A stretch of DNA of 24,496 bases from a virus (taxonomy: Duplodnaviria > Caudoviricetes), in the IMG/VR virus record IMGVR_UViG_3300037045_000212, positions 1-24,496 of that record. One strand, written 5' to 3'. Numbering within the stretch: the stretch's first letter is position 1; each line of letters begins with the position of its first letter. The notes below the pieces were generated by a model. The model ran no database searches. It saw only the letters and a program-made list of their open reading frames with translations, and had not been told where the DNA came from. Below, one piece after another: positions 29 to 24,251 of this stretch. Made by a program: the position numbers and the translations under genes.

Positions 29-125
29 GGGAGTAGATGGGTGCTGGTGTGTCCTCTGGTCTTCAAAACCAGTGTGAGGAGTTCAGAGCTTCTCAGGTGG
101 GTTCGATTCCCACGTACTCCCGCCA
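29..125 (+). tRNA. selC: tRNA-Sec (UCA anticodon)
   Basis: Acceptor GGGAGTA(29-35)/TACTCCC(115-121), G discriminator, CCA(123-125). 6-bp D stem GGGTGC/GTGTCC with 4-nt loop TGGT. Anticodon stem CTGGT/ACCAG with loop CT-TCA-AA. 9-bp variable arm TGAGGAGTT/AGCTTCTCA. T arm GTGGG-TTCGATT-CCCAC. Confidence 0.97.
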
Positions 126-151
126 AATTAAGACGTCACCTTTGAGACAAT
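124..151. repeat. Left attachment junction: CA core + 5 nt + left inverted-repeat arm AGACGTCACCTTTGAGACAAT (131..151)
   Basis: 131..151 is the exact reverse complement of 24224..24244. CA at 124-125 is 5 nt from the arm, mirroring CA at 24250-24251. Confidence 0.88.
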
Positions 152-164
152 CTCAGAGGGCAGT

Positions 165-197
165 AAACCCCTATTTATAGGGGTTTTGTTGTTTTTT
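165..197 (+). terminator. Intrinsic terminator downstream of selC, supplied by the element
   Basis: AAACCCCTAT-TT-ATAGGGGTTT hairpin (165..186) followed by TGTTGTTTTTT. Confidence 0.8.
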
Positions 198-271
198 GAA
201 TTAATATCTAGCATATAACTCGATTGCATAAGTCCAACAAGTTGCTGTGTAGGGCAAGCATAATATCTCGA

Positions 272-322
272 TGCACCCGAATGCACCCATTTGCACCAGG
301 CGAGTGTGCATTCTGGTGCAAA
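272..322. repeat. Subterminal TGCAC(C) repeat array with 10-bp period
   Basis: TGCACC at 272, 282 and 292. Inverted GTGCA at 306 and 316. TTTGCACCAG (290-299) / CTGGTGCAAA (313-322) is a perfect inverted repeat. Confidence 0.7.
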
Positions 323-340
323 CAATCATTTGAATAAGAG

Positions 341-369
341 AAAAGCCCGTGGATTTGTTCCACAGGCTT
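341..369 (-). terminator. Intrinsic terminator of the recombinase operon
   Basis: Minus strand AAGCCTGTGGA-ACAAA-TCCACGGGCTT-TT, 20 nt after the stop of 390..2006. Confidence 0.7.
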
Positions 370-389
370 GTAAAATTGTACTCACGTTT

Positions 390-2006
390 TTACGCGTTGC
401 TGGTACTTATAGCTTTAACCGTTATTTCTGTACCGTCCTTGTATAAGAAGACCAGAGTCTTATCAGGGTTTACCTTTACAGATTCAACGGTTGATAGCCA
501 AAGATTCTGGTCGAACTCCGATACCAGATCGTCTGCCCGTCGCAACTCATAAAGAAAGTGACGGATTTTTTCTTTTCGGGCGTTTTGATCTGATATTTCA
601 TGCTTGATCTTGGATATCTGAGATTCAAGTCCTCGACACAGCGTGTTTATTTCCTGATAGTTGCGATTGTACTTCACCTGATCGCGTACTTCACGGGTGT
701 TTTCCTCCATGTAGCGACGCATCTCGTCGATAGTAGTATCGTGCTCACTTTCGAGTTCCTCCAGTTTTTTATCCAGTGGGGATGTGTCCGCCAAGAGCGG
801 CAACAACACCTCGAAGTTGCTGATATAGCGATCTTTATTGCTGATAATTTGATTGAACGCCTGAATGAAGGCTTGCTTCAGCTCATTCTCCCGTAGGTGT
901 GGCGTATTGCATTGATTTTCGTTGGCATATTTCCTGTTGCACTGCCAGATATGGTAACGGTATTTACTGGTAGAGTGCCAAACTTTTGAGCCGTAATATC
1001 CGCCGCATGCTCCGCAAATGATCTTTGCAGCAAAGGGGCTGTTATTGTTCAGCTGCCGTCTGTTAGGTTGGCGTTTTTCAATTTCAATCTGTACGAGATT
1101 GAAGGTTTTCGGGTCAATGATGGCTGGATGAGAGTTCTCGATATAATACTGCGGAACCTCACCATCGTTTTTCTTGATGGTTTTACTGAGAAAATCCACC
1201 GTATAGGTTTTCTGCAGCAATGCATCACCTTTGTATTTTTCGTTGCTCAAAATACTCATTACAGTGCTGACGCTCCACTTTTCCTTGCCGCTAGGCGTCA
1301 GAATACCTTGTTCGGTAAGGTGCCGCGTGATATTGCGTATCGTGGTTCCTTCTAGAAAAAGAGCGTAGATTTCCCGGATTATCTTAGCTTCTGCCTCGAC
1401 AATTTTCGGCAAATTATTTTCGCCTTTCTCGTAACCTAGAAAACGTTTATAAGGGAGCGATATTTTTCCATCCTGCATACTTTTTTTCTTTCCCCAGCTG
1501 ACGTTTTCGCTGATGGAGCGGCTTTCTTCCTGGGCAAGCGAACTCATAATTGTGATGAGGACTTCACCCTTGGCATCCAGCGTGTAGATATTTTCCTTCT
1601 CAAAGTATATCTCAATGCCTTTCTCTTTCAGTTTGCGGACAGTCGTCAGGCTGTCTACAGTGTTTCGAGCAAAGCGACTGATCGACTTCGTGAGGATTAG
1701 GTCGATCTTACCATCCAGCGCATGGGCGATCATGCGATTAAATCCGTCGCGCTTTTTCATATTCGTGCCGCTGATGCCTTCATCGGTGTAGACGGAGACA
1801 AATTCCCATTCAGGGTTGCTTTGAATATGACGCGTGTAATAATCAACCTGTGCTTCGTAGCTGGTGAGTTGTTCATCTGAATCGGTAGAAACGCGCGCAT
1901 AGGCGGCTACGCGTCTTTTACGGTATTCTGAACTGGACGGTGTCGTCTGCAAATTTGCTCGCGGTTGAATGATATTGACCTTGCGAGGTGTCGCTGTCAT
2001 GGTCAT
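390..2006 (-). CDS. Large serine recombinase / integrase 1 (538 aa)
   Basis: Catalytic AAYARVSTD, DEGISG and SISRFARN motifs; recombinase domain; Zn ribbon CGACG...WQC...C with coiled coil. AAAGGAG RBS and ATGA overlap with the upstream gene. Confidence 0.96.
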   Translation of the reverse strand: MTMTATPRKVNIIQPRANLQTTPSSSEYRKRRVAAYARVSTDSDEQLTSYEAQVDYYTRHIQSNPEWEFVSVYTDEGISGTNMKKRDGFNRMIAHALDGKIDLILTKSISRFARNTVDSLTTVRKLKEKGIEIYFEKENIYTLDAKGEVLITIMSSLAQEESRSISENVSWGKKKSMQDGKISLPYKRFLGYEKGENNLPKIVEAEAKIIREIYALFLEGTTIRNITRHLTEQGILTPSGKEKWSVSTVMSILSNEKYKGDALLQKTYTVDFLSKTIKKNDGEVPQYYIENSHPAIIDPKTFNLVQIEIEKRQPNRRQLNNNSPFAAKIICGACGGYYGSKVWHSTSKYRYHIWQCNRKYANENQCNTPHLRENELKQAFIQAFNQIISNKDRYISNFEVLLPLLADTSPLDKKLEELESEHDTTIDEMRRYMEENTREVRDQVKYNRNYQEINTLCRGLESQISKIKHEISDQNARKEKIRHFLYELRRADDLVSEFDQNLWLSTVESVKVNPDKTLVFLYKDGTEITVKAISTSNA

Positions 2007-3328
2007 TTTTCACGCTCCTTTCTGTGACGAGCTGCTGTTTTTTCCCGACCAGACTGACGCATAGAATCGTCCCAGCTATGGCGACGGGACGGGTTCTCCC
2101 ACCCAATTTCCGCACAATGCCCATCCTTAAAGACATACTCGATTCGGTTGTGACCCGGAATTCGTATTTTTGTAATGCACATCTCCAAAAATTCTCGGGT
2201 CAACTCGGATACACCGAGTGCTTCTGAGGTTTTGTCCAATAGAATATTCTCGGGAATCAGTTGCGACGGACAGTAACTTTTGCCTTGGACGCTGTAGGTG
2301 TGACACATCCATACTGCGTTTGCATACTTACTGCTGGAATGCGCTGTTTTTCTATGGTAACGCTTCCCACATAGACCGCAGTGAATCAAACCGGAAAATA
2401 CATGCGTATTACCATGTCGAGCTTCGATATTATATTTTTCAGTCCGATACTCAAATTCGTGCTGAACCTGCTCGAAGAGTTCTTTACTAATAATGGGATC
2501 ATGGCTGTCGAGCACCTGATATATAGGTAACTCACCACGATTAATCTTTGTTTTCTTTTCTAGATGATCGGACTTGAATGTCTTCTGGAGCAGCATGTCG
2601 CCAGAGTACTTCTCATTTCGCAGAATTTTACGGATGGTACTTTCGTTCCATGATGGATTGCCGTTTTTTGTAGGAATACACGCATGGTTCAGTTTTTTTG
2701 TGATGGCATTCGTCCCCATACCGGACATGTAATCAGTGAATATCATCTTCACGATTTCGGATTCTTCCGGGATGATGTGAAACGTCCCGTTAATAAGGCG
2801 ATAACCAAGGGGATTACAGGAAGTAGGGCGTCCCTGTTCGAACATCTTGCGAATCCGCCACTTTTGATTTTCGCTGACCGACCGGCTTTCTTCCTGAGCA
2901 TAAGATGCCAGAATGGTAAGCATAAACTCACCATCTGCACTGAGCGAGTGAAGATTCTCTTTTTCAAAATAAACGTCAACCCCCAGCAGTTTCAGTTCGC
3001 GAATGGTCTCAAGAAGCGTCACGGTATTGCGAGCAAAGCGGGTGATTGACTTCGTAATAATCATGTCGATCTTCTTGTCACGACAGTCGGAGAGTAACCG
3101 CTGGAATTCCAGTCGGTTATTTTTAGTGCCGGTAACTGCTTCATCTGCATAAATACCGGCAAACTGCCAATCACCTCGTCGACCAATGTAACTGTTATAG
3201 TGGCTGATCTGAGCAGATAGGGAATGGAGCATGGCTTCTTTGCCAGTGGATACGCGAGCATAGGCCGCCACGCGTTTGCGCTGTACCGACTGTGCGGTCG
3301 TTCGCTGGATTTTCGTTATTTTTCGCAT
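2003..3328 (-). CDS. Large serine recombinase / integrase 2 (441 aa)
   Basis: AAYARVSTG, DEAVTG, SITRFARN, AQEESRSVSEN; Zn ribbon CGLCG...WMC...C; lacks the long coiled coil. GAGGTG RBS. Confidence 0.95.
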   Translation of the reverse strand: MRKITKIQRTTAQSVQRKRVAAYARVSTGKEAMLHSLSAQISHYNSYIGRRGDWQFAGIYADEAVTGTKNNRLEFQRLLSDCRDKKIDMIITKSITRFARNTVTLLETIRELKLLGVDVYFEKENLHSLSADGEFMLTILASYAQEESRSVSENQKWRIRKMFEQGRPTSCNPLGYRLINGTFHIIPEESEIVKMIFTDYMSGMGTNAITKKLNHACIPTKNGNPSWNESTIRKILRNEKYSGDMLLQKTFKSDHLEKKTKINRGELPIYQVLDSHDPIISKELFEQVQHEFEYRTEKYNIEARHGNTHVFSGLIHCGLCGKRYHRKTAHSSSKYANAVWMCHTYSVQGKSYCPSQLIPENILLDKTSEALGVSELTREFLEMCITKIRIPGHNRIEYVFKDGHCAEIGWENPSRRHSWDDSMRQSGREKTAARHRKEREK

Positions 3329-3401
3329 AGTAAATCACCTCGCATAATTCCTCCACATTTTTTACTGTCCCATCTATCACTCTTATGCTTAGAAAAAGCA
3401 A

Positions 3402-3424
3402 GGGGATTCTGCACGAGAATCCCC
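3402..3424. terminator. Hairpin between the DUF4314-like gene and the recombinases (possible terminator/attenuator)
   Basis: GGGGATTCT-GCACG-AGAATCCCC perfect 9-bp stem. On the minus strand it is followed by TTGCTTTTT. Confidence 0.55.
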
Positions 3425-3438: not shown

Positions 3439-3669
3439 TTAGAGCTTTCGAATCTGATCGACCCCATAAGCAACACCAAGGCTGGAGCCGCAGTCCCAAT
3501 TGACGAATACCGTACCGATATCATCGACGAAAAGGACAGTTCCTTTTTCGCCCGGTTTTATGTTCGTGTAAGGGTCGCTCATTGACAAGAGCTCGACGCG
3601 ACAGCCATCGGGGTACATCTTGCGTAACCTCTCGACAATAGCTTCGTTTGGAAGTCTATTGCTCTTCAT
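3439..3669 (-). CDS. DUF4314-like small protein (76 aa)
   Basis: YPxGxRVELxxMxDPY...GTVxxVDDIGTxxVxWDxGSSLG pattern that I recognise as this family. ATGA-coupled to the upstream gene. Confidence 0.85.
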   Translation of the reverse strand: MKSNRLPNEAIVERLRKMYPDGCRVELLSMSDPYTNIKPGEKGTVLFVDDIGTVFVNWDCGSSLGVAYGVDQIRKL

Positions 3670-4397
3670 AACTGTTCACCGCCATTCTCATTCGAGACTG
3701 TTGCTTCAACAGTTGTTTCTGGAGCAACAGTTTTTTGTGGGCGTTGTCCGCTTTTAAAGCTGCTGTTGCCGGTAAGGTTCTTGAGCAGGATCGTTCGTGC
3801 TGTTTTATATTCCAGCCCAATGAATCCCAAACGGATCAAGAACACCCGCATCGCGAACTTGTCGTTCTCCAGCGCCTTTTCTTTTGCAGTGATACGCTTT
3901 TGAGTTTTTGCCATATAGCAGAGGGCGGAGATAAAGCGTGTGTAAGCATCCGCTTCGCCGTCAATGCCTCTCAAAGAAAACCATTGAAAGTTTAATCTGC
4001 CGTCGATAATGTCGATCAACAGGTTGTCTGTATCGAGCGCTTTCTTAATAAGACTTTCCTTGCTGGCGATGATCTTCTTGAGGTTTTCAATTGCTTCCTC
4101 TGTGAAATCATCCGTGGGTATTTGAATGTTCAGCTTGTTGGCGGTATCCAAATCCTGATTTTGATCAGTTCTCGGGTCGTAGCCGCGTTCTTTGAGTGCG
4201 GCAAGTAAGCTTTTGACCTCATCGTGGTCAGCATCATCGGGGTAGGACAGGTTACCGTCCTTGTCGATGAGATAATGATTCACGGTGTAGGCGAAAGTCG
4301 GCGCGCCCGTGTATGCAATTTCGTGACCTGAGATTGCACTGATTACTCCAACCAGCGCCTTGCGCTTAGAACCTGTTACGTTAAACTGTACATTCAT
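3666..4397 (-). CDS. Conserved Firmicutes MGE/prophage protein, usually annotated 'virulence-related protein' (243 aa)
   Basis: G.KRKALV..IS, YTGAPTFAY, SKESLIKKAL, NDKFAMRVFLIRLGFIG.EYK..R.ILLKNLTGNSSFK motifs. GGGAG RBS. Confidence 0.75.
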   Translation of the reverse strand: MNVQFNVTGSKRKALVGVISAISGHEIAYTGAPTFAYTVNHYLIDKDGNLSYPDDADHDEVKSLLAALKERGYDPRTDQNQDLDTANKLNIQIPTDDFTEEAIENLKKIIASKESLIKKALDTDNLLIDIIDGRLNFQWFSLRGIDGEADAYTRFISALCYMAKTQKRITAKEKALENDKFAMRVFLIRLGFIGLEYKTARTILLKNLTGNSSFKSGQRPQKTVAPETTVEATVSNENGGEQL

Positions 4398-4421
4398 CGT
4401 TATCGCTCCCTTCAGCTCAGT

Positions 4422-4655
4422 TCATTCCACAATGTCCGATGTTCTAAAGCGTTTTAACCTCCTTCCGTTTGTTTTGGGGTGGATTGCAAGAGCTGCTCCC
4501 TGAAGCGAGCAGATAACCGGCGTGTATTTCGCCGCGAGCACTGCTTTGATCTTGCAGAACTCACTTTGGGTTATCAGGCGGCTCTGGAGCATTGCTGTGG
4601 CAATAGAAAGCGCCACACCATACTCCAGTTCGCGCTGAAATTGCTGCTTATTCAT
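4422..4655 (-). CDS. SHOCT-like small protein (77 aa) of the kind found upstream of tandem serine recombinases
   Basis: MNKQQFQRELEY..ALSIA..ML..RLITQSEF.KI...L..KY.P.I.SL. Start revised to ATG 4655 (GGGGAGG RBS, ATGA overlap with the upstream stop). Confidence 0.7.
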   Translation of the reverse strand: MNKQQFQRELEYGVALSIATAMLQSRLITQSEFCKIKAVLAAKYTPVICSLQGAALAIHPKTNGRRLKRFRTSDIVE

Positions 4656-5050
4656 GGCAATACCTCCCCATAACGGCTGCGGAGATAGCAATCATGTCCG
4701 CAGTATTTGCGTTTGTTTTTGCTCTTGAACGCTGCTCCGCAGAAGAGGCAGGTGAGGCGATAGGTGGTTATTCGCCCGGTGATGGAGCGATTCTCATTCC
4801 ACCATGTATAGCGACATTGGTCGTTACAGAATGTCTTTTTCTTTGATCCAACGTGATGCTCCAATGGAGTGCCGCATAGCTTACAGCAATCTTGCTCGAT
4901 ACTGTTAGGAATGCGCTTAGAATCAATCTTTTCGCGGTGGCAGAATGATTTGACTGTGTTAGCTGAAAGGCCAAGAGTTTCAGCGATGGCTATGTGTGTC
5001 ATGCGCTCGTGACGCATATATCGGATGGCTTGTTTCTGTGTATTCGTCAT
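4652..5050 (-). CDS. Sigma-region-4-like HTH + Cys-rich Zn-finger protein (132 aa)
   Basis: HTH IAETLGLSANTVKSFCHR; CKLCG, FCNDQCR, CLFCG, YCGHDC. Start revised to the second ATG (5050), 7 nt from AGGAGG. Confidence 0.8.
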   Translation of the reverse strand: MTNTQKQAIRYMRHERMTHIAIAETLGLSANTVKSFCHREKIDSKRIPNSIEQDCCKLCGTPLEHHVGSKKKTFCNDQCRYTWWNENRSITGRITTYRLTCLFCGAAFKSKNKRKYCGHDCYLRSRYGEVLP

Positions 5051-5192
5051 AGCCATGCCTCCTTTTCGGTGGGAGTGGCCGCAGGAGAGGCTCCGTGCGC
5101 GCTTTTATAGCGAGTGTCGGAGAAAATCCCGACCTTTCTTTTGAGCGGCCTGTGCGGGTAAATCTGCGCCACGTTATTCGATGGGGGTCGCA

Positions 5193-6020
5193 TCATGGCT
5201 GACTGCCTTTCGCATTGAGCTCTTCTTGCTGAATCAGCGGTTCAAGTTCATCAGGGGTGATTACGACAAAGAGATCAGGGAGATTTTTAAACGCTTCTTT
5301 TAGGTGTTTATCAATACGGTTCTTTCGGGCAACATCGGGAGCGATCCAGACAGTCAGTGGGAAGACGTTGTGCTCTTGCTGTTCGAGGCCGGTTCGGTAG
5401 TACTGGTGGTAGCGCTGACACTTTTCAATGACCTTGATCGGCGATTCCGTAGCCAGATCGATCTCAAAGAACCAGCGATCTTCATAGCTGTCACATCGGG
5501 TGATGGCGAAAAGATCAGGCTTTAGGGCGATTTGCTTTCCCGAATTCATGTACGGACGCCAGCACTGCGGTTCGTTCTGAATCTCCGTCAGAAGCATCCC
5601 CGGTTTTCGGCAGATTTCAGTCAGTCGGACGAAACATTCCGTGACCATTAAGGTGTGTGCAAGAAAATACTGGGACGGTTCAAAGTTCTTCCGATGTGGA
5701 CGGGCTGTCTTGTCGATCACTCGGAGCCGATGCTCACCGGCGCTGTCCAGATTCCAGATGAACGATCCCGAACCGGAAAAGGTTCCGCCGATTCGCCGTG
5801 GAAGGGAGTCGATCAACTGGAGAGATTTGAGCTTTTCGAGGTTGCGGCTGGCTGTCCGAAGGGCCGCACTTTCCGATGCGGAATCTCTGAAAAAAAGCCG
5901 ACTGATCTGTGAGGTTGTGATGTATCTGGATATCTGAATGGTTCTGAGGATGTTCTTATCCCGCTCGTTGAGCTGTGGTTCCAGTTCCTCTAGCATTCTT
6001 CGTGATATGCGGTCAGGCAT
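5193..6020 (-). CDS. Replication-relaxation family (PF13814-like, MOBC-type) relaxase (275 aa)
   Basis: N-terminal wHTH (RDxxIL...TTSQISRLFF), HTL motif, nuclease-like KPDLF...FFEIDLATE. Adjacent to the coupling protein. Confidence 0.88.
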   Translation of the reverse strand: MPDRISRRMLEELEPQLNERDKNILRTIQISRYITTSQISRLFFRDSASESAALRTASRNLEKLKSLQLIDSLPRRIGGTFSGSGSFIWNLDSAGEHRLRVIDKTARPHRKNFEPSQYFLAHTLMVTECFVRLTEICRKPGMLLTEIQNEPQCWRPYMNSGKQIALKPDLFAITRCDSYEDRWFFEIDLATESPIKVIEKCQRYHQYYRTGLEQQEHNVFPLTVWIAPDVARKNRIDKHLKEAFKNLPDLFVVITPDELEPLIQQEELNAKGSQP

Positions 6021-6147
6021 GGCTGCCCCCAGTGGGAAAACTACTGTGATAACAGTAGGAGTCCTTTCCCTTAAAGCCGAAATATCGGGTTTTGTCGGGG
6101 GACACTAGGATCGTGAAGTCCGACCGATTCGTCATGCGATTCGTCAT
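6013..6147 (-). CDS. Possible 44-aa coupling ORF (MTNRMTNRSDFTILVSPDKTRYFGFKGKDSYCYHSSFPTGGSHA), absent from the ORF track
   Basis: ATG overlaps the T4CP stop (ATGA) and its TGA overlaps the relaxase start (ATGCCTGA). No homology recognised. Confidence 0.3.
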   Translation of the reverse strand: MTNRMTNRSDFTILVSPDKTRYFGFKGKDSYCYHSSFPTGGSHA

Positions 6148-6148
6148 G
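6125..6148. repeat. Perfect 12-bp tandem repeat CGATTCGTCATG x2
   Basis: Copies at 6125..6136 and 6137..6148. Confidence 0.85.
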
Positions 6149-8303
6149 TTATTTTTCTCCTTCCGATGGATGCATCGCCCCAATCACTCTGGGGAGCTGC
6201 ATCCGATTTGATAATTTCAAGGTATTCCTGCTCTACTTCTTTTGCAGATTTGCCGTACCGACTCATGCTCTCGGCCTTCAGTTCGGCAGGCATTCGGAGT
6301 GCTAGTGGCGGGGGTAATGTTTGGCCTTGTATCCAGCCGGTGTTTCGACCGCCAGATTGAAATGAGGTGTATATCTGGTAACGGGGCAGATTCATAAAGT
6401 CCCGGGTCTCCAGTTCATGCGCCATCGATGCCATATCCCGGGCATCGCCGCCGTTCAGTCCGAAGATAATCTTGTTCCGGGCGTTGGCATCAATTCCGGA
6501 TCGAATGTTTTGTGGTAGCTGATCTCGGTATTGATGGGCCATCGTGATGCCAAGCCCGAGACCGCGTGCCTGAGCCAGCGCATCTGATAGATCGGTGGGA
6601 AGACTCAGGTAATCCTGAAGTTCATCGATAAACACGCTGACAATGTGCCGCTTCTCCGGAGGGATATTGGTACGGGAGAGCGCCAACGTCCAAGTGAGTC
6701 CGACAATCAGACTTCCTAAGAGCCGGGCACTCTCGGAACCAATCACTCCTTTATTGAGCGGAACCAGTATGATCCGACGCTTATAAAAGAGATCAGTCAG
6801 TGCGAACTTGGGATCGCTCTGTCCAAGCACATTACGGAGTCCGGGTCTCAGCAGGAACTGACGCATCTTATTCATGACAGGTGCGATCTCCTGTCGGCGT
6901 TCGGAGTCTTTCATAGCTTCGAAGCTATCCCAGAAGGGTTTTAGGGCGATTCGGTCGTTAACGCGGCTGGTGATTTTCTGACGAAAAGCTTCGTCCGTCA
7001 GGAGGGTCGGTAGCCAAAGAAGTGATGCACCTTCGGCTTCAACCAGCGTCAGTAGCGCTGCGCTTAAGATATCTTGACTGCGAATGCCCCAGTTGTCGGC
7101 AAAAATCTCCTTAAAAACTGCGAGGACGGCGTCCGCAATCAACGCGGGATTGTGATAGTTTTTGAATGCCAGTGGGTTGAAACCAACCGGACTCGGATCG
7201 GAGGGGTCGATGACCACGACCTCATCCGTCCGGGATTCCGGAATACAGGCGAGGATGTCATTTACAAGATCAGCCTTCGGGTCAATGAGAAGAACGCTGC
7301 GTCCGGCCTCTATGTCCGACAAAGCCAGGTGGAGCATGGCTGTAGACTTACCCGTACCGGTTGGGCCAAGAAGGATAGTGTGCTCCAGACTATCCCTGGG
7401 CGAAATGCTAAGCTGTATCCGTTCGGCAGTTCCCGTGCTCATAGCAAAGATTCGAGACTGTGCAGCGCTGGACGGACTTCGATACCACTCCGGTGGCGGC
7501 AGGGCTTTTGGGTGTAAGCCAGCCGTACCTGCCAGTTCCTTATCTCCGGCGGGAAGCAAAAGAAAGTGCGCCAGTTCTTTAACAGATAGTTTGAGCGGAA
7601 AACACCAAGGGATGTGAGCGGTGTTGATATGCTCCGGGTTTTCAGGGTGCGTATAAATACGAACACCGGCGGATTCCAAGGTTTTCAGGGCACTGAGAAT
7701 GCTGTTGATGCGACTAAGTGAACTTCCACTGGCTGAGCCGATCCGTATGGCGACGTGAAAGCCATGCTGATGGGCTTTTTCTTTGATGGCGTACCGGCTT
7801 TCCGGGGAGGCATTGTCGACACCGCCAATGAGAAACTGAAACCACGGGGTGTGAGGGCTTGGAACTCGTTTCGGAACGTCGGTTGGGGCGAATGACCGAC
7901 CAAACACGATCTGAAGCACAGCATCGGAAGGGTTCGCCCCGGAGACAATAGCGGCAAGTCCTGCCCGAATGACAGCCAGAGTGACATCGGTTTTAAGGGA
8001 TAGAACTGGGCGGGATATTTTCAGTTGTCGTACGGTATCGATAGTCTTTCTGGAATCCTCTTTAGCACTGTAAAACTGGACGCGACCGTGTGAACGGAAG
8101 ACCACTTGAATGGCTGGCATATGGCGTCGTTCTGCACCGATAAGATACTGAACACGGCCTTCCGAAGCTCGGACTTCCCAGATAATTGCTCCGCGAGGAA
8201 TCAGGGACGCAAGGTGCGTGAGAAGTTCATAGATCGTCTCAAGTTCAAACGGACGATGCCAGACTACCTCTTTCCAACAGATATCTTCGATTTGTCGTTT
8301 CAT
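6144..8303 (-). CDS. VirD4/TraD-like type IV coupling ATPase (719 aa)
   Basis: Walker A GPTGTGKS, LLIDPKAD, GFNPL, Walker B VFIDELQD, ARGLGL..TMAHQ..QL. No obvious N-terminal TM segment. Confidence 0.9.
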   Translation of the reverse strand: MKRQIEDICWKEVVWHRPFELETIYELLTHLASLIPRGAIIWEVRASEGRVQYLIGAERRHMPAIQVVFRSHGRVQFYSAKEDSRKTIDTVRQLKISRPVLSLKTDVTLAVIRAGLAAIVSGANPSDAVLQIVFGRSFAPTDVPKRVPSPHTPWFQFLIGGVDNASPESRYAIKEKAHQHGFHVAIRIGSASGSSLSRINSILSALKTLESAGVRIYTHPENPEHINTAHIPWCFPLKLSVKELAHFLLLPAGDKELAGTAGLHPKALPPPEWYRSPSSAAQSRIFAMSTGTAERIQLSISPRDSLEHTILLGPTGTGKSTAMLHLALSDIEAGRSVLLIDPKADLVNDILACIPESRTDEVVVIDPSDPSPVGFNPLAFKNYHNPALIADAVLAVFKEIFADNWGIRSQDILSAALLTLVEAEGASLLWLPTLLTDEAFRQKITSRVNDRIALKPFWDSFEAMKDSERRQEIAPVMNKMRQFLLRPGLRNVLGQSDPKFALTDLFYKRRIILVPLNKGVIGSESARLLGSLIVGLTWTLALSRTNIPPEKRHIVSVFIDELQDYLSLPTDLSDALAQARGLGLGITMAHQYRDQLPQNIRSGIDANARNKIIFGLNGGDARDMASMAHELETRDFMNLPRYQIYTSFQSGGRNTGWIQGQTLPPPLALRMPAELKAESMSRYGKSAKEVEQEYLEIIKSDAAPQSDWGDASIGRRKIT

Positions 8304-10144: not shown

Positions 10145-10236
10145 GTTGATAAATGCAGTCTTAGTAATTCCATGTACAGTATTTGCGATGTGTCTACATT
10201 TCCCCAACTCGATTACACGAAGTGAGGTGCGACATA

Positions 10237-15379: not shown

Positions 15380-16351
15380 ATGTCTGAAATTAACATACCA
15401 GTAACACTCAATTCTGATGAAAAAGGCTACTTTGACAGGCAATGCCCGAACAAAAAATGCGAATTCATTTTTAAAGTGTTTATGGAAGACTGGAAAGATA
15501 AGGTGACTGACGAACAGGTTTTCTGCCCGATGTGCGGTCATGACGCACCTTCTGATCAATGGTATACCCATGAGCAAATCAATGGCATTAATAAGATCGC
15601 ATCAAGCTACGCTCATTCATTAATCAGCAATGAACTGGATAGAATGTTTGGCAAGATGGCGCGCACAACGCGTAGCAACAAATATATCAAAATAACATAC
15701 AAACCCAACCGAAAGACTACGTTCGTCAACAATCCTATAGGGCAAAGACCCGAATGGGAGTTGGAGATAGCCTGCGAAAAGTGTGAGACCCGATATAGCG
15801 TGATTGGAAGTGCTTATTTCTGCCCATGTTGTGGCTATAATGCCGTTGATCGTGTTTTCGATGAGTCTATTGATACAGTTCAAAAGATGATTGAATCCAT
15901 CGGCGATATATACATCACATTAGAAAAGAGCCATGGTAAAGACAAGGCTGAGTCAATGTGCCGATCAATGATTGAGGGAACTCTTGGAGATGTTATTTCA
16001 GCCTTCCAAAAGTTCGCTGAAGATACTTACAAGAAACTAATGCCAGCGAAAAAAGTGAAGGTTAACGATTTTCAAATTATTGAAAAGGGAAGCAAGCTAT
16101 TTTATGAAGCCTCCGGCAAAGGTTACGATGCATGGCTAACAAAAGATGAGATAGTTGACGCCAATATACTTTTCCAGCAACGTCATTTGATCGAACATAA
16201 CCACGGGTTAATCGACGAAAGATACATTCAGAATTCTAACGATAATTCTTATAAAGTTGGTCAGCGGGTGATAATTAGAAGTTCTGATGCTTTAAAGTTA
16301 TTAGGTTATGTAAGAAGGCTATCGCAAGGGCTTAGTACATTATTGATGTAG
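15380..16351 (+). CDS. Double Zn-ribbon + HEPN-like protein (323 aa)
   Basis: CPNKKC, CPMC, CEKC, CPCC. Helical C-domain with an Rx4H motif (RHLIEH, followed by NHG.ID..Y). Confidence 0.7.
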   Translation: MSEINIPVTLNSDEKGYFDRQCPNKKCEFIFKVFMEDWKDKVTDEQVFCPMCGHDAPSDQWYTHEQINGINKIASSYAHSLISNELDRMFGKMARTTRSNKYIKITYKPNRKTTFVNNPIGQRPEWELEIACEKCETRYSVIGSAYFCPCCGYNAVDRVFDESIDTVQKMIESIGDIYITLEKSHGKDKAESMCRSMIEGTLGDVISAFQKFAEDTYKKLMPAKKVKVNDFQIIEKGSKLFYEASGKGYDAWLTKDEIVDANILFQQRHLIEHNHGLIDERYIQNSNDNSYKVGQRVIIRSSDALKLLGYVRRLSQGLSTLLM

Positions 16352-16546
16352 ATAATAAATACATTACGGGAAATAATATTTTATAGCATTTGGAGATTTG
16401 AAGCACTGTGTAATGAAATTTTACCTAGCAGGAATTTCCTGTACAATGAGAATATCACTGTACCGAATGGTCAGCGCTTTAATATATACAGCAAGCAATA
16501 ATGGCGTTTGTGCCAGTAAGTAAAATTGAATGAGGTGAATAATTTA

Positions 16547-19249
16547 ATGAAAATCGATTCTGCGATATTAACAACAAGTGTGAATATATGCAAAAATATT
16601 GACCGGTTTGATGATTCTGATAGAGGTCTTTTATCGCAGAATATTTTGTCCCAACTCAGAAACCTCATCGAATATATAGCCGAGAAGATCTATGCTGGTA
16701 ATAATGATATTGACCCCAATGATTTTGCTAAAAAGACAGAAGCACTTGAGTATATAAAAACAAGAGGTAATTATAGGTTCTTATATAAATTCCATAGTCT
16801 TGTTCAGATATCAGCGTCGCACTATACGCTTGACGAGGGAAAATCAGAAAGACTAATGCTCAACTACTATAAGTATCTACTCAAAATCAAGATTTTCCTA
16901 AAGGATACCTATAATCTTGAGATTCTTGAGAATATTGACCAGTTTCCTCTAAATACCGACACTAAGTTCATGGAATATTATGAGAAAATAGCAGCCAGGA
17001 TCAATCAAGTAAATCCCAGTCCATCAAAAAGCGTCTATGACGATAGGTATTACATTCATAAAGTGAAGCCGTTTTTTGTTAACAACAGAATCTACTACGA
17101 GGTTACTTTCACCGCGGCAAACGATAAATCGAGTAAGTTCGATCGGGTTATAGCGTTCACTAAACTGGAAATCAGCAGCAATTACGCCGTCAAACTTACG
17201 GTGAGAAACGACAGGATTGATATTCTAGGCAAGACGATGCCTATTCATGTTATTGATAAATGGGAGATATCAATTCGTCCATGTGAACTGAATAACTTTG
17301 CCGATTTCTTTGGCGGCCATCATAAAATCAGTAGTGGCTCCAATGAATACTACGAACTAATGAACTTTTTGACGGTATCAGGTATGAGCTTAGTTGATTT
17401 AGTTTGCTCTTCAGATAGCTATTTCACAAGTGTAAAAGCGGAAATAGCAAAAAGTGCAAAGTCTTTTCATATATATGAGATGCTAGAAAAAAGCCGTGAC
17501 ATAGTAAAACGAAATCTAAGCGGAAGTAATGTTATCAAATATCTGCTACATAGGCTGAATAACAAGATACTCAAGCGGCAATACTGGAGTGATCCATGCA
17601 ATTTGTTATCTAATTTACGTTTGAAATACGGTTGTATTCCATTTGATCAGATGCCATTCAATTCGTCTCTAATAAATCACAATCCAAGACTTGCGGACTT
17701 GTTTGAATGTATTAATTACTCGGGCAGAGAACATGAAATATTCGCCAGATTTATAAAGAACAATACGGAAATCAACGGGTCATTATTCACTCCAATTAAA
17801 GATACTACGGGATTTGATGACATCGATGCTCTGATGAGCCGTTATAACGGCAGTGTATATCGCACGCACGGCGGACGAAAGTTAGAAACTTTTAAAGACC
17901 ACATTTACATAAGAGAGTATGTAGAAAACAGCGCCGACATCGTTAATAAACTAAAAGAGCTGTCTTTGGCGGGCGTCACCAACTACACTAAGTCGGTTGA
18001 ATTTTGGCTACAATCGTCGTCGTATGGGATCGATTGTGTCGAAAAGAAAGACGCTTTAAGGCAAATGTTTGAAAATTCTAAAGTTGCATTGATATATGGT
18101 TCTGCAGGCACTGGGAAATCAACATTGATTAACCATATTTCGAACTTCTTCAACGATAAAGAAAAGATTTATCTGGCAAATACAAATCCGGCAATTGACA
18201 ACCTTAGGCGGAAAATCACTGCCAGTAACTGTAGTTTTAGTACGATAGCGAAATTCTTGTCCTCGAGGAACTGCCATGTAGATTGTGACTTATTGATAAT
18301 TGATGAGTGTAGTACCGTCAGCAATTCGGATATGAAGAAAATTCTCGAGAAGGCAAAGTTCAAATTATTAGTTTTGGTTGGGGATGTCTTTCAGATTGAG
18401 TCGATTGTGTTCGGCAATTGGTTTAGTATTGCTCGATCGTTCGTTCCGGATAAATCTGTCTTTGAACTGACAAAACCATATCGAACAACAAAGCCCAATT
18501 TACTGAATGTATGGAATCGGGTAAGGGCATTAGATGAAGCTCTGCTGGAACCGATGGTCAAACATGGCTATTCTGTTAGATTGGATGACTCGATATTTGA
18601 TCATACTGAAGAAGATCAGATTATTCTGTGTTTGAATTATGATGGACTATATGGAATAAACAATATTAATCGATTTTTACAGGGAAACAACACAAATGCT
18701 AGTGTGCAATGGGGGATTAATACTTTCAAAGTTAACGATCCCGTGCTGTTTAATGAATCAGATCGTTTTACTCCTGTCATTTATAACAATCTAAAAGGAA
18801 AAATTGTCGGCATTAAGACTTTTAAAGACAGGGTACAGTTTGAAATTGAAATTGATAAAGCAATCAATGAGTTAGACGCTTCAGGGTATGATTTTGAGCT
18901 ACTCGGCACCTCGCAGAAGGGTAATTCTATTATTAGGTTCTCGGTCAATAAGTATAAAAATACTGATGATGACGATGGATCTTCCGAAACCGTGGTTCCG
19001 TTTCAAGTAGCATATGCAGTATCGATTCATAAAGCACAGGGTCTAGAATATAGTTCAGTTAAAATTGTAATTACAAATGAAGTTGAAGAGCTTATTACAC
19101 ATAATATTTTCTATACAGCAATAACCCGAGCCAAGAACGATTTGAAGATATACTGGACACCTGAAACAGAGCAGGCGATTCTAAGTAGCTTGAAGTTAAG
19201 AAATGATAAAAAGGACGCGGCCCTATTGTCATTAAAATACAGCTTATAA
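16547..19249 (+). CDS. RecD-like SF1B helicase with long N-terminal region, possibly Nhi-like defence protein (900 aa)
   Basis: GSAGTGKST, IIDECS, LVGD.FQIES, PYRT, AYAVSIHKAQGLEY, YTAITRA. Start revised to ATG 16547 (GAGGTG RBS). The helicase call is firm; the Nhi call is tentative. Confidence 0.8.
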   Translation: MKIDSAILTTSVNICKNIDRFDDSDRGLLSQNILSQLRNLIEYIAEKIYAGNNDIDPNDFAKKTEALEYIKTRGNYRFLYKFHSLVQISASHYTLDEGKSERLMLNYYKYLLKIKIFLKDTYNLEILENIDQFPLNTDTKFMEYYEKIAARINQVNPSPSKSVYDDRYYIHKVKPFFVNNRIYYEVTFTAANDKSSKFDRVIAFTKLEISSNYAVKLTVRNDRIDILGKTMPIHVIDKWEISIRPCELNNFADFFGGHHKISSGSNEYYELMNFLTVSGMSLVDLVCSSDSYFTSVKAEIAKSAKSFHIYEMLEKSRDIVKRNLSGSNVIKYLLHRLNNKILKRQYWSDPCNLLSNLRLKYGCIPFDQMPFNSSLINHNPRLADLFECINYSGREHEIFARFIKNNTEINGSLFTPIKDTTGFDDIDALMSRYNGSVYRTHGGRKLETFKDHIYIREYVENSADIVNKLKELSLAGVTNYTKSVEFWLQSSSYGIDCVEKKDALRQMFENSKVALIYGSAGTGKSTLINHISNFFNDKEKIYLANTNPAIDNLRRKITASNCSFSTIAKFLSSRNCHVDCDLLIIDECSTVSNSDMKKILEKAKFKLLVLVGDVFQIESIVFGNWFSIARSFVPDKSVFELTKPYRTTKPNLLNVWNRVRALDEALLEPMVKHGYSVRLDDSIFDHTEEDQIILCLNYDGLYGINNINRFLQGNNTNASVQWGINTFKVNDPVLFNESDRFTPVIYNNLKGKIVGIKTFKDRVQFEIEIDKAINELDASGYDFELLGTSQKGNSIIRFSVNKYKNTDDDDGSSETVVPFQVAYAVSIHKAQGLEYSSVKIVITNEVEELITHNIFYTAITRAKNDLKIYWTPETEQAILSSLKLRNDKKDAALLSLKYSL

Positions 19250-19388: not shown

Positions 19389-19395
19389 AATTTGG

Positions 19396-21540
19396 TTATG
19401 CACTTTGAAAGTTTAAGATTTGAATCATTTTGATTTCCGTCATTGCGGGAATTTTAGTAATATCTAAATTTCCAGCTAATTCTGTTGATCTTGAGTGCCA
19501 AAGGTTAACATTAAACTCCATCGGTAGATTTGGTATTGGCGTAGGGTTCCATAACACTCGTCTGTGAACAATGCAACCATCAACCCGCCAAAGCAAATTG
19601 TTTTCACGCCATTCGATCTCATACTGATGAAATTCGTTTGAGGCATCAAATCCAAGTTCAATCAGTGTAGGTGTACCTCTGTAGCCATATTCAAGCTTCG
19701 TTCCTTCTATACCCGGATTAAAAAATACATTCACCAACATTTTAGTCGTATCTTTACCGAGGAACTCAATATCAATTTCCTGATGGGGGTTATTTCTATG
19801 TAAAAAAATGCCCGTAACTAAGCCGGGGACATTCGATGGTTTAATCTCAGCGCTGAACTTTCCGTATAAGAATCTATCATTGCTAGCTATTGCTGCCGAT
19901 GTGTAGTCGCGTACAGCAGTTGAGTGTTCTTTAAGCATAAGACGCATTACACCAAGATCGTCAACGCGAACATTCGCGGGATTGAAAAGAGATAGATTGC
20001 TCGGGAAGGTGTCGTTGCGAAGTTTCCATTGCTTATCATCAATGCTTTTCTCGCCGCGCCATGTAATCACAGGTTTTGTCATCGGCAAATCTACACAGCT
20101 ATCCTCTGCAATAGGGATACCACTCCAGTTGTCCGAGGATATAATCCAAGGAGAGGTATCAAACTTAAGAGGTTTACAAGGCAAGACGTCTCCGCGCTGA
20201 CTATCTTTCTCCTCTAAACTCCGCTGACCTACGTCAAAGCAGTTAGGATATAGCGATGCAGGGTATTCGCATTTAAGAAATGAACTTAATGCTGCCCATT
20301 TATCGTGATGGTTATTTGGTAGGTGCAAAACTTGCTCGGCATGAGTTTCGAGCACTCTTGAATCATCAAGTGAAGTGAATATCAACCTTGCATTCCGATG
20401 GAGTTTCACAAGATTATCAATAGACCAACCATCGATTGAGCCAATATTAACATAAGCATTAAAACGACGCTCACTCTTTTTTGCAAGGAGGTTTTGCTGC
20501 TCCATCGTAGGCAGTTCCGCAATGTCGTTACAGCACGTGTACCCCATTACAGAGAGTGCCGTAGCTAAAGACGTCAATCCAGATCCGGGACTACCGAAGG
20601 CGAATACTGGCCCTTGTAGTTTTTTTGTTTGCGCAACCAATGGTTTCTCATTCGTATGGACTCCAATTTGAGACAGTATCGGCATTACGGAATAAGAATT
20701 GGTTGAGGGCACATCAACTCGTTGTTCGATAATTGGATACTTAGTCAAATAAACATCTAGTTTATCAAATTGTAAGTTCAGCCAAAGATCAATCGGGCCA
20801 TATACCGGCAACATTTTAAGTAATTTCTGTGCCCCTTCTTGGGATAGAACATATCCCGATGCTTGCCATATCCCGCGATCTGGTTTTCGCACCAATTCTA
20901 TGTGTGGCTTTTTAAACTTTGGGGCAGCGCCTACTTCCTGAAATGATAAGAACAACAAATCAAATGCCGTAGAATCGGAGGAATTCATAATTACGTCAGT
21001 CCATGCAGCATCTAGGTTACGAACAAACCCACGGCAAAAATAAACGTCATCTTCTAAAATAAGCGTATATGGGACATTGCTGGCGGCAATTAATTTCCAT
21101 ATCTCAATATGAGATAGAGCAATAGCAATCTCCTGTGGCGTCATTTTTATACGAAGCGCCTTTGAATTGGCATCAATTTGTACAAGTGGATTTGGCTCAA
21201 CAAATAGTTGGTCGGCTAGTGAAAAGTATGGAATCAACATCTTTTCATCAATCTTATCGTTAAGATATCGTGCATCAATAGCGGAGTATCTTCTGCTTAT
21301 TTCTGACAGTGTCGTGCCAGAGCGGATTTTTATCCTGTCAAGTTCTTGACTCACTTGATGCCAACGATCCGGTTTTCGATCGAGATTTATTACGTAGACT
21401 CTTTGGATTGCATCAATTGCATCGGCATTTGCGAAAGAATCTGCTTTTTTCTTTGTATCGAGTAACCGCGTATGGAACATGAGTCTGTGTTGTAGCCTCT
21501 TGAAGAATCCGGAATATATTTTCATATTCATATGAAACAA
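19396..21540 (-). CDS. Triple fusion: GT25 glycosyltransferase - sulfotransferase-like P-loop domain - GH16 (lichenase-like) hydrolase (~714 aa; start uncertain)
   Basis: GT25: VYVINLDRKPDRW, SAIDA, EIAIALSHIEIW, LILEDD, GYVLSQEGAQKLL, PIDLWL. Middle: VFAFGSPGSGLTSLATALSVMGY...DKWAALSSFL....P...YP. GH16: YGKFSAEIK, G.VTGIF, QEIDIEFLGKDTTK, FDASNEFHQYEIEW, NVNLW. Confidence 0.88.
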   Translation of the reverse strand: MFHMNMKIYSGFFKRLQHRLMFHTRLLDTKKKADSFANADAIDAIQRVYVINLDRKPDRWHQVSQELDRIKIRSGTTLSEISRRYSAIDARYLNDKIDEKMLIPYFSLADQLFVEPNPLVQIDANSKALRIKMTPQEIAIALSHIEIWKLIAASNVPYTLILEDDVYFCRGFVRNLDAAWTDVIMNSSDSTAFDLLFLSFQEVGAAPKFKKPHIELVRKPDRGIWQASGYVLSQEGAQKLLKMLPVYGPIDLWLNLQFDKLDVYLTKYPIIEQRVDVPSTNSYSVMPILSQIGVHTNEKPLVAQTKKLQGPVFAFGSPGSGLTSLATALSVMGYTCCNDIAELPTMEQQNLLAKKSERRFNAYVNIGSIDGWSIDNLVKLHRNARLIFTSLDDSRVLETHAEQVLHLPNNHHDKWAALSSFLKCEYPASLYPNCFDVGQRSLEEKDSQRGDVLPCKPLKFDTSPWIISSDNWSGIPIAEDSCVDLPMTKPVITWRGEKSIDDKQWKLRNDTFPSNLSLFNPANVRVDDLGVMRLMLKEHSTAVRDYTSAAIASNDRFLYGKFSAEIKPSNVPGLVTGIFLHRNNPHQEIDIEFLGKDTTKMLVNVFFNPGIEGTKLEYGYRGTPTLIELGFDASNEFHQYEIEWRENNLLWRVDGCIVHRRVLWNPTPIPNLPMEFNVNLWHSRSTELAGNLDITKIPAMTEIKMIQILNFQSA

Positions 21541-21546
21541 TAAATC

Positions 21547-21567
21547 GCTAACTTAATGCGAGTTAGC
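21547..21567. other. Intercistronic hairpin between GT32 and the GT25 fusion
   Basis: GCTAACT-TAATGCG-AGTTAGC in the 30-nt gap. Confidence 0.5.
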
Positions 21568-21570
21568 TTC

Positions 21571-22398
21571 CTAGTAGTCATTGCCATCCCAAAGCCTCCA
21601 ATTTCGTTTGTCTTTCCGATATTCTAATGGCCATTGTGATATGGATATGCTATCCCAATTATCAATAAGTACAAAATCACACGCCTGACCGGCATTTTGA
21701 GATTCAATTGCATATCTAATTAAGCTGGCGGTCAAATTACCTGGGCCGGTAGTCGATTGAACATCTTTTATTTTACTCCCCGGAGCTAATAAAATTTGCG
21801 TAGACCTTTCTAGTGCCAGTTTTATAACTGGGTGGTTTGGCGGTGCGATAATTGGATTATTATTTACATAATATATTAAGTCTTGTGAGTATTCATTGCT
21901 TGTCAAGAAATCGATGGCATTAACCATTAGGTCCGTCGATAAGTCATAACATAATGGTTGAACCTTCAGTTTGTTGTCTTGAAACAAAGTTTCGATGTCG
22001 ACGTTATAAAAAACGTCATCTGCGTCAACGTATAATCCGCCGGCTTTCAAGATATAACAGAGCCGAAAATAGTCAGATCTCATAGCTGGATGTTGGCATC
22101 GTTCGAATGCGTCAATGTGGCGTTGATCGTAGTTTCTCATAATAAAAAGTCTAGCGTCTTCATCGCTAAATAGAAGCCGCTTAAAGTCACACTCGTCAAG
22201 TGATTTCCAGCTATCTATGCACTTGCGAACATCGGCAGGCATATTCACGACGTCATCCCAGAATTGAATTAAAGTACGTGGAATTTTGATTTGTTCATTT
22301 GGAGATGTATAGATACCAGGATTGCGAATTAAACCCCACATATACTGAGATCTCAATTGATGATTTTCTGAAATTTCTACAGGCGCTAGGTTACTCAT
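21571..22398 (-). CDS. GT32-like (DXD, Och1/TcdB-type fold) glycosyltransferase (~275 aa)
   Basis: KIPRTLIQFW, CIDSWK, AMRSDYFRL..I...GGLYVDADD, NN.IIAPPNHPVI, TGPG.LT. Start revised to ATG 22398 (GAAGG upstream); upstream ATGs are possible. Confidence 0.85.
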   Translation of the reverse strand: MSNLAPVEISENHQLRSQYMWGLIRNPGIYTSPNEQIKIPRTLIQFWDDVVNMPADVRKCIDSWKSLDECDFKRLLFSDEDARLFIMRNYDQRHIDAFERCQHPAMRSDYFRLCYILKAGGLYVDADDVFYNVDIETLFQDNKLKVQPLCYDLSTDLMVNAIDFLTSNEYSQDLIYYVNNNPIIAPPNHPVIKLALERSTQILLAPGSKIKDVQSTTGPGNLTASLIRYAIESQNAGQACDFVLIDNWDSISISQWPLEYRKDKRNWRLWDGNDY

Positions 22399-22690
22399 CC
22401 AAATACCTTCAGCAAATGCTGATGCTTTCTTAGAATGTTTAATCATATCCGATACCAGTACTGTATATAATGCTACCACGTTATTTGCATGATAACAGAT
22501 TTGCCAATTGCTGTACATCGCAATCGATAAACCAATTAACCGGGTTGAGTTGAGTCACTGTAAGCGTACTGCTATTATTTTAAGAAATAATCGTCATATG
22601 TGATTCCTTTACTCACCGAAAGCATGGAAGATGATGCCTCGAAAATATTTTGGCAAGTTCTGGATTGTGCCCACCCAACCCCTCATTGTG

Positions 22691-22719
22691 TTGTTATATT
22701 TTACATAAGTGTGTAAAAT
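22691..22719 (+). promoter_or_regulatory. Promoter with overlapping inverted-repeat operator
   Basis: TTGTTA (22691-22696) - 17 nt - TAAAAT (22714-22719), overlapped by ATTTTACA-N6-TGTAAAAT (22698-22719). Confidence 0.55.
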
Positions 22720-22745
22720 TAAACTCAATCAATTGGAGTTTATAT

Positions 22746-24077
22746 ATGCATGCAATCCAGAAACTAACAAAGAAAAAGATCATTACTATTGGCATCTTAG
22801 GGATTGCGATCATTATTGCTTTAATCACAAGTCGTGTTTACTTGCAAAATGCATTAGAGGCGAGTAATAAGCTAGATTATAAAAATATTGCGACACTGGG
22901 ATCTTCTGCAGATATAAAATACTTGGGTGTGAATTTTAAGTTCAACGTAGACTACTTTGTTACTAACGGTAGTATTTTTGCATATACATCATTTGGGAAA
23001 TTGTTTATTTACGATAGCGATTCAAAGTTAATAAAAAAAATCGAAGTATCGGACGATTATAAATATGGATACTTTAAATTAGCGATAACTGAAGATAAGA
23101 TTGTAGCCTCCAAGGAGAACGATATTGAAGTGTTTAATTTTATAGGAGAATCGCTTGGCATTACAAATATTCCATTTGGAATAGCTTCGTTGACCAGTTC
23201 AACAATCACTGGTATCTCCACAAACTCTGCAGATTTTCCTAGCACTTTAATATCAAGTGCTGAGACTGTATCATATAAAACTGCTGGCGAAGAGGATATA
23301 ATTTCGTTTGATTATGATATTAAAAATGGCAAAATAGTCACCTCTGTTGGAACAATAAGACAAATCGGCGGAGTGGGCAAAGATAACAGCAATCCAAATA
23401 ATATTATTTCAGAGTACAATGGCAGTGGGACATACTTACTTTTAAATTTGAGCGATAATGTCTCAGTAAAGAGTTTTAGTCATGCCGATGATAAAGAATT
23501 ATTCCCGAAATTAATGCCTTTTAAAGAAGATCTATCTTCAAATGAGGGCAACTATATTTGTAATTGCAAGGAATATATTGGTGATACCCTACACAACGAC
23601 GGCACTACGGTTCGATGGATGAGACCCGTAATGAATCCCATCACAGTCTCATCCGCTAAATTTACATCTGAAGGCAAAATGGACGGCTTGTTTGTTTTAT
23701 CTGATGCACAAAATAAGAATAGTGTCCTTGGATCTGGCAGAGATGACTATAGCGACGATAATGACTACGGTAGTCTTTTACAATTGAATAAGTATAACAA
23801 TAATAACGGTTCATTAATAAGTTCTAAATTAATCGACGGAATAAGCGCATTCAACACGTCAATGATTGCAACAAACGAGAGTCTTTACATTATTGGTGGT
23901 CTGAAAAATACCGATACGGAGATTCGAAAATACAGTCCCGAGTTAAATCTAACGAGTAAAGCATTATTGCCAAAAGGTACATTCTTAAATACATACCAGT
24001 ATAAAAACGATATCTACATACTTTTTTCGACTGAAAAGAAAGAACCATCCCTTGAAGTCTACAAGATAGTAAAATAG
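22746..24077 (+). CDS. Membrane-anchored/secreted beta-rich hypothetical protein (443 aa)
   Basis: Start revised to ATG 22746 (GGAG RBS). KKK + hydrophobic IITIGILGIAIIIALI anchor. Ser/Asn/Tyr-rich, with propeller-like short strands. Confidence 0.75.
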   Translation: MHAIQKLTKKKIITIGILGIAIIIALITSRVYLQNALEASNKLDYKNIATLGSSADIKYLGVNFKFNVDYFVTNGSIFAYTSFGKLFIYDSDSKLIKKIEVSDDYKYGYFKLAITEDKIVASKENDIEVFNFIGESLGITNIPFGIASLTSSTITGISTNSADFPSTLISSAETVSYKTAGEEDIISFDYDIKNGKIVTSVGTIRQIGGVGKDNSNPNNIISEYNGSGTYLLLNLSDNVSVKSFSHADDKELFPKLMPFKEDLSSNEGNYICNCKEYIGDTLHNDGTTVRWMRPVMNPITVSSAKFTSEGKMDGLFVLSDAQNKNSVLGSGRDDYSDDNDYGSLLQLNKYNNNNGSLISSKLIDGISAFNTSMIATNESLYIIGGLKNTDTEIRKYSPELNLTSKALLPKGTFLNTYQYKNDIYILFSTEKKEPSLEVYKIVK

Positions 24078-24169
24078 AGATTTCTATGGATGGAATTGCA
24101 GTTAAATATCTCGTATTTATTTTATGAACTTTGATTTTTTTACTTTTCACGTCATCAAATATTCACACA

Positions 24170-24203
24170 TACACGTTTAGTTAAATCGTGTACAAACGTG
24201 TAC
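24170..24203. repeat. Subterminal TACACG repeat array at the right end
   Basis: TACACGTTT (24170-24178) / AAACGTGTA (24194-24202) inverted repeat. CGTGTAC at 24187 and 24197 (10-bp period). Confidence 0.65.
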
Positions 24204-24223
24204 CAACCAGAAGACGGAGCGGA

Positions 24224-24251
24224 ATTGTCTCAAAGGTGACGTCTATACACA
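24224..24251. repeat. Right attachment junction: right inverted-repeat arm ATTGTCTCAAAGGTGACGTCT (24224..24244) + 5 nt + CA core
   Basis: Exact reverse complement of 131..151. CA at 24250-24251. Confidence 0.88.

Follow-up and report, generated by a model that had tools for sequence, protein, structure and literature searches.

Does a mobile island that sits exactly behind a selenocysteine tRNA gene carry enzymes made for that gene, or enzymes that would accept tRNA ends in general? This question is raised by a stretch of DNA of 24,496 nucleotides (hereafter, the window), which corresponds to positions 1 to 24,496 of the IMG/VR record IMGVR_UViG_3300037045_000212. There, an intact host tRNA-Sec (selC) gene, called by ARAGORN at 29-125 on the plus strand with its encoded CCA at 123-125, is followed by an element bounded by perfect inverted repeats, which a first-pass annotation of the sequence had taken for the arms of a serine-integrase attachment (att) site targeting selC. 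With good confidence, we conclude that these repeats are att arms and that the 24.1-kb island was likely inserted by its own two recombinases, which are likely to use the CCA terminus of nearly any tRNA or transfer-messenger RNA (tmRNA) gene. The main point is the targeting of any tRNA, not of selC.

The geometry of the ends agrees with the annotation. Positions 131-151 are the exact reverse complement of 24224-24244, and these 21 bp form the longest exact inverted repeat of the window (the runner-up has 16 nt); none of 100 three-base-block shuffles of the window gave an inverted repeat of 21 nt. Each arm lies 5 nt from a CA dinucleotide, so that the left core (124-125), within the tRNA's CCA, is followed by spacer and arm (126-151), and right arm and spacer (24224-24249) are followed by the right core (24250-24251), all read on the plus strand. 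The family motif TTGAGAC in the left arm starts 17 nt from the core. When the ends are joined, a 54-bp site symmetric around CA is obtained, and the element measures 24,126 bp from core to core. The two junctions overlap by CAA only (3 nt; 124-126 and 24250-24252) and by nothing longer, which bears out the claim that the tRNA end is not duplicated at length. Given this overlap, the window locus by itself cannot tell a CA core from an AA core; we place the predicted crossover at CA because of the symmetry of the arms and because relatives differ in the base after CA, and the empty junction described below fits this placement.

The island also carries the enzymes expected of a serine-recombinase system, as had been proposed. 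Two large serine recombinase genes lie on the minus strand, recombinase 1 (390-2006, 538 aa) and recombinase 2 (2003-3328, 441 aa), the second overlapping the first by 4 nt. Both products contain Resolvase, Recombinase and zinc-ribbon domains above Pfam cut-offs, with catalytic and zinc residues intact: the catalytic YARVS and the four Cys of recombinase 1 are preserved, as is the catalytic motif of recombinase 2.

The annotation had further predicted an attB in which tRNA-Sec joins the right flank directly, and we looked for this empty site in sequencing data. Seven runs contain part of the left end, of which five (X1-X5) were examined; X6 and X7, which contain small shares, were left out. 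The empty junction was present in 5/5 runs examined. At the left end, a piece departs from the tRNA after base 126 and runs into the right flank (X1-X4, 4/4 runs), and at the right end a piece comes from the tRNA end into 24250 (X1-X3 and X5, 4/4 runs). Long contigs bridge the junction in X4 (18,943 bp) and X5 (3,389 bp), with more than 31 bases on each side; the pieces in X1-X3 are 57 nt long and fall under this bar. Both occupied junctions, one at each end of the element, were found in X1-X3. Empty pieces had depths of 41.1, 8.6 and 11.8 versus 4.7, 5.8 and 4.2 at the element's right end; these depths are not a cell share, but they suggest that the occupied form is the minority allele. In 4/4 runs a second branch point was observed 110 nt past the right end, where contigs leave at 24369 or enter at 24359 or 24370; a further site of variable insertion may thus lie next to the tRNA (24359-24399). 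The host is probably a relative of Acidaminobacter, judging from locus L192, whose tRNA-Sec differs by one base and whose SelB clusters with that of an Acidaminobacter sp.

The one claim that fell is selC targeting. In the window's subclade (recombinases 73-79% identical, tree support 1.0), the relative P0003, which shares the backbone and whose recombinase is 78% identical, has the identical 21-nt arm 5 nt past the CCA of tRNA-Leu(GAG). Other members sit after tRNA-Met (L085), after a tRNA-Pro 3' fragment (L082) and at two non-tRNA sites (L229, L001). Moreover, a 1.17-kb cassette in G252 (L274:1903-3097, G252:C62) lies at tRNA-Gln(CTG) with window-type arms and CA cores at both ends; it holds one TIR_2 gene and no recombinase, and was therefore probably moved in trans. 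A similar arm follows tRNA-Leu(CAG) in L232, 4 kb upstream of a recombinase gene. The layout of that locus (L232:5753-11548) is unlike the window's: arm, reverse-transcriptase gene and single recombinase, then restriction and Gabija-like genes. None of 54 other tRNA-Sec 3'-end loci had a recombinase relative downstream (15 nt to 10 kb inspected), and 11 tRNA-Sec loci that fitted a loose arm pattern were rejected, as they had neither the motif's final C nor a recombinase. Scanning viral sequences for the arm gave 7 loci: one copy of the window element, one relative and five chance matches without a recombinase. As the nearest relatives are 73-79% identical, the target range of a single enzyme is seen only in sister clades.

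A set of 160 loci from less closely related elements was examined. At 22 of its non-self loci recombinase 1 has a called tRNA in front of it, and at 20 of these an arm starts at the CCA. The tRNAs are of the Ser, Ala, Pro, Leu, Arg, Met and Thr kinds (for Thr, the arm is possibly that of an adjacent element), and three further loci are tmRNA ends. Recombinases 99.4% identical were found one at tRNA-Ala and the other at tRNA-Pro, and among those 99.6% identical one lies at a tRNA end and the other at a tmRNA. Since related islands occupy the same spot of many tRNA genes, the recombinases likely recognise tRNA ends generally. Overall, 27 distinct tRNA/tmRNA-end junctions stand against 7 distinct non-tRNA sites, of which 6/7 end in ACCA and 3/7 keep ATCC in the tRNA register.

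Both ends could be read for the relatives in G004 (59 kb), G005 (57 kb), G036, G037 and G252, and the base after CA varies among them. For example, the 57-kb relative in G005 splits a gene with a SpaA domain, whose frame stays open (190 + 300 codons) when the halves are joined at CA, whereas a join shifted by 1 or 2 breaks it. A search of 30 relatives did not reveal an empty site for the G004 element, and arm-pattern matches in G001-G003 were rejected as element ends by their context. L158 and L098 read right arm, CA, left arm and may be circles or tandems; L158 is 100% identical to L052, which is inserted at tRNA-Leu. Some arrangements differ from the window's. In L003, L009, L015 and L004 the recombinases lie at the end far from the tRNA or tmRNA and the core reads TG from that side, and in G036 and G037 a tmRNA that carries an arm lies 55-60 kb away, on a contig of equal length.

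We then asked how common a tRNA end followed by such an arm is, using the signature T-loop, 15 nt, CCA, 16 nt, TTGA(T/G)AC in 401 genomes of Clostridia, the class of G003. It was found in 70/401 genomes at 87 sites, versus 8/401 genomes for a 19-nt spacer and 8 matches for the reversed pattern. A whole tRNA or tmRNA, of 11 kinds, was called at 24/30 signature loci. Genomes with a top recombinase match had the signature in 10 of 20 cases, the others in 60 of 379 (counted by eye; G003 had been chosen for having one). When 35 sites were read over 5-20 kb, a recombinase was seen at 3 and a closing arm at 7 (0-3 at other spacers), and neither at 26. The figure of 70/401 was thus rejected as a count of intact elements, most sampled sites having no recombinase nearby. 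Many element-less sites (26/35, L279-L317) are perfect hairpins followed by housekeeping genes; such arms could be remnants of element ends that were retained as terminators, they could bound elements of more than 20 kb, or they could be terminators that arose by convergence. At L283 and L291 a closing arm and CA are directly followed by another opening arm, that is, tandem arrays of elements of the same family.

How could one enzyme pair accept so many targets? In the mechanism that we propose, the circular form would carry an attP made of right arm, CA and left arm, and the pair would cut at CA in both attP and the tRNA end and swap them, leaving the tRNA whole and only CA(A) repeated. Host-side specificity would come from DNA that is invariant among tRNA genes (ACCA, the T-stem ATCC and the T-loop), and the downstream host half-site would be unconstrained; the downstream flanks that were read have no arm motif in common, and the target therefore appears one-sided. 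Next to the left arm, inside the element, lies a terminator-like hairpin (165-196, plus strand, recognised by pattern and fold only), which would replace the displaced terminator of the tRNA. In the empty allele, as contigs and folding indicate, the tRNA is adjoined by a host flank with a stable hairpin and a T-run (24252-24305, plus strand). The two recombinases would divide labour as CcrA and CcrB do, and the relaxase and coupling protein encoded by the island would move it via a helper's mating pore.

For the LI integrase of Listeria, the available text of PMC3783163 places the contacts of the zinc-ribbon domain at attP bp 16-24 and the attB motif 5 bp further inward. Here, the conserved arm motif TTGA[T/G]AC spans +17 to +23, and the complement of the T-loop, T[C/T]GAAC, occupies the same register outward from CA, from +17 onward. 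Host and arm agree at +17, +18, +19, +20 and +23 in 25, 15, 26, 26 and 22 of 27 distinct junctions. As both motifs were fixed by the search patterns, only the shared register is informative; it is suggestive. A bolder proposal, which we offer tentatively, is that a two-subunit serine integrase reads only a single half-site, the universal tRNA end, whose T-loop would mimic the attP motif of the enzyme, equally far from the core; islands, mini-cassettes and prophages could then settle behind any tRNA or tmRNA gene that encodes its CCA, without a telltale repeat, and the left-over arms would serve as tRNA terminators in about one sixth of Clostridia genomes.

Several points weigh against insertion by a pair that accepts tRNA ends in general. 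The window's own pair is known at one site, its nearest relatives being 73-79% identical, and its recombination activity is predicted from sequence. No attP-type junction of the window element was seen among the contigs of X1-X5, contigs being prone to drop rare forms; all five runs are from 2020 groundwater and may represent one campaign, and X1 may be the source of the window. Among relatives with enough flank, an arm at a distance of 200-420 nt from the gene was missing in 87/110; some of these have a GA core and lie at different targets. The correspondence with the T-loop is incomplete, quite apart from the search patterns that set both motifs; tRNA-Sec places its T-loop one base further out, and the non-tRNA sites show no T-loop match. 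The shift of register in tRNA-Sec would fit a pair specialised for selC, whose relatives at other tRNAs would each have a specificity of their own. Also in favour of such a specialist, tRNA-Sec is the only place where the exact pair of the window is observed, and the pair diverges by at least 21% from the closest relatives and forms the first branch of its subclade. We nevertheless consider it unlikely, as the identical 21-nt arm occurs at tRNA-Leu and near-identical ones at Met, Gln and non-tRNA sites, near-identical enzymes of sister clades occupy different tRNAs, and the 54 other Sec ends lack a relative. Slightly more plausible, but still improbable, is insertion of low specificity at short ACCA-type motifs, with tRNA ends enriched because harmless insertions survive. 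The seven distinct non-tRNA sites, one of them within a protein gene, point in that direction, as does the GA-core branch, which is found at unrelated sequences. However, the 27 tRNA/tmRNA junctions outnumber the 7 others although ACCA is far commoner elsewhere, several secondary sites mimic a tRNA end, and sparing of genes does not explain insertions after partial tRNA 3' fragments.

The remaining alternatives concern the nature of the repeats and of the contig. Perfect inverted repeats near both ends could be those of a transposon, and tRNA 3' ends are the classic sites of tyrosine integrases, as the accessible part of PMC5704250 has it. Yet no DDE or tyrosine enzyme is found among the 19 open reading frames (ORFs) scanned, each arm is set back by 5 nt from a CA that occurs as a direct repeat, and the junctions overlap by CAA only; enzyme content and end geometry thus largely refute either origin, to which we give hardly any credence. 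Misassembly of the contig is scarcely more credible, both occupied junctions being present in X1-X3, and the same low rank goes to a prophage: the record is labelled a virus and related recombinase pairs occur in phages, but no virion gene was detected among 14 ORFs compared with PHROGs, where the coupling protein alone gave a weak P-loop match. We therefore retain insertion by a recombinase pair that likely accepts tRNA ends of many kinds.

The closest known counterpart of the pair is in Phi1207.3, a prophage of Streptococcus pyogenes, whose Orf57 is 51% identical to recombinase 1 and Orf56 40% to recombinase 2. As in the window, the two large serine recombinase genes are in tandem and overlap, and kin occur in Phi10394.4 and the Javan phages. 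Both ends of Phi1207.3 read core, 16 nt and TTGATACAA; the window arms have the same spacing and the motif TTGA(T/G)ACAA. According to the sections available of PMC4260502, only a dinucleotide is repeated in Phi1207.3, the core is GA within comEC, and cooperation of Orf56 and Orf57 is only proposed. The window differs in its CA core at a tRNA CCA and in being a relaxase-bearing island instead of a phage. GA cores belong to a sister branch of the CA-core recombinases, and on the Phi1207.3 side of the tree 15/41 loci combine the family arm with a GA core and are found at sites unrelated to one another (counted by eye). Targeting of tRNA does not form one well-supported clade, and deep nodes are weak; as for the tree labels, L016 and L100 were mislabelled by the strict pattern and L003 by a chance match, and short loci were left out.

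The staphylococcal cassette chromosome mec (SCCmec) likewise combines a two-recombinase module with defence cargo, and its CcrA/CcrB act at a central dinucleotide between inverted half-sites and insert at a gene 3' end (available text of PMC13739063). However, the window recombinases score 58-150 with the NCBIfam Ccr models, against cut-offs of 700-900, and neither the rlmH target, nor the GA core, nor the motif TATCATAA of SCCmec was found in the window. The DsiB/DsiA ssrA islands of Dehalococcoides, described in the accessible part of PMC3146451 as likely mobilizable, use serine recombinases at the 3' end of tmRNA; they have a 20-bp direct repeat, a crossover in the T-loop and a single target, whereas the window has a CCA crossover, a 3-nt overlap and a family with many targets. 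Moreover, the second Dsi recombinase is small and has no DNA-binding domain, unlike the two full-length enzymes here. Streptococcal integrative mobilizable elements (IMEs) with a MobC relaxase and their own VirD4 resemble the window in having relaxase and coupling protein and no mating pore; in the part of PMC5704250 that was available, their serine-type members disrupt protein genes and tRNA-inserted ones use tyrosine integrases. The multi-targeting large serine recombinases of Durrant et al. (PMC10083194) share with the window family the trait of one cluster with many targets, but in the text available to us those targets are protein genes, the clusters fall in a DUF4368-rich TndX-like clade, and the word tRNA does not occur in the main text.

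The rest of the window reads as an integrative mobilizable defence island, though its record is classed as viral. Five TGCACC-like 6-mers, spaced at ~10 nt, lie in the interval from the left end to recombinase 1 (272-320); similar repeats recur near the ends of relatives and are candidate sites of an accessory protein. Beyond the recombinases, a DUF4314 protein (3439-3669, minus strand, 76 aa), found at the same position in relative L215, is a speculative candidate for an accessory factor. It is followed on the same strand by three backbone genes (3666-5056; Pfam and PHROGs), encoding a 243-aa protein with the N-terminal part of phrog_2443, a SHOCT_2 protein and a 134-aa helix-turn-helix-like protein. 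Profile searches then identified, all on the minus strand, a PF13814 Replic_Relax relaxase (5193-6020), which we take to be of the MobC type and which had no match in the plasmid collection searched, a VirD4/TraD-like coupling protein (6144-8303) and an MT-A70 methyltransferase (8326-8886). Among the 19 ORFs scanned, the own integrase and relaxase that define an IME are present, together with the coupling protein, and a complete mating pore is absent (no VirB4-type match); neither the tyrosine integrase nor the long direct repeat of a tRNA end that mark the tRNA islands of tyrosine integrases was found.

The cargo includes a Gabija system on the plus strand (11280-15343; GajA 11280-13403, GajB 13388-15343), followed on that strand by defence candidates (15380-19249), a PDC-M14A-like N-terminus (15380-16351) and a PDC-S53 helicase (16526-19249), all called by PADLOC. 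On the minus strand, profile searches found a GT25-GH16 fusion (19396-21540) adjoining a DXD glycosyltransferase (21571-22518); together with the neighbouring defence genes, this pair (19396-22518) possibly serves surface modification. The ORFs 10183-11184 (333 aa) and 22650-24077 (475 aa, plus strand, cargo) had no match in Pfam, NCBIfam, PADLOC or PHROGs.

In the portions of reviews available to us (PMC5704250, PMC4701971, PMC13626063), tRNA 3' ends are described as sites of tyrosine integrases, protein genes as those of serine integrases. The literature searched (including PMC12884075), as far as its accessible text goes, describes no pair of serine recombinases that inserts at the CCA of tRNA genes; sites of this kind may be tabulated in database supplements. 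The window supplies a complete att set backed by sequencing data together with two intact enzymes, and this set is suited to studying why two recombinases are needed and how a target that consists of a half-site only is read. Should the pair prove to act on any tRNA end, it would offer a portable, non-disruptive integration tool for bacteria. For the family itself, our findings point to a serine branch that uses many kinds of tRNA end and leaves behind a repeat of 2-3 nt, and island finders that seek a duplicated tRNA fragment would miss such insertions.

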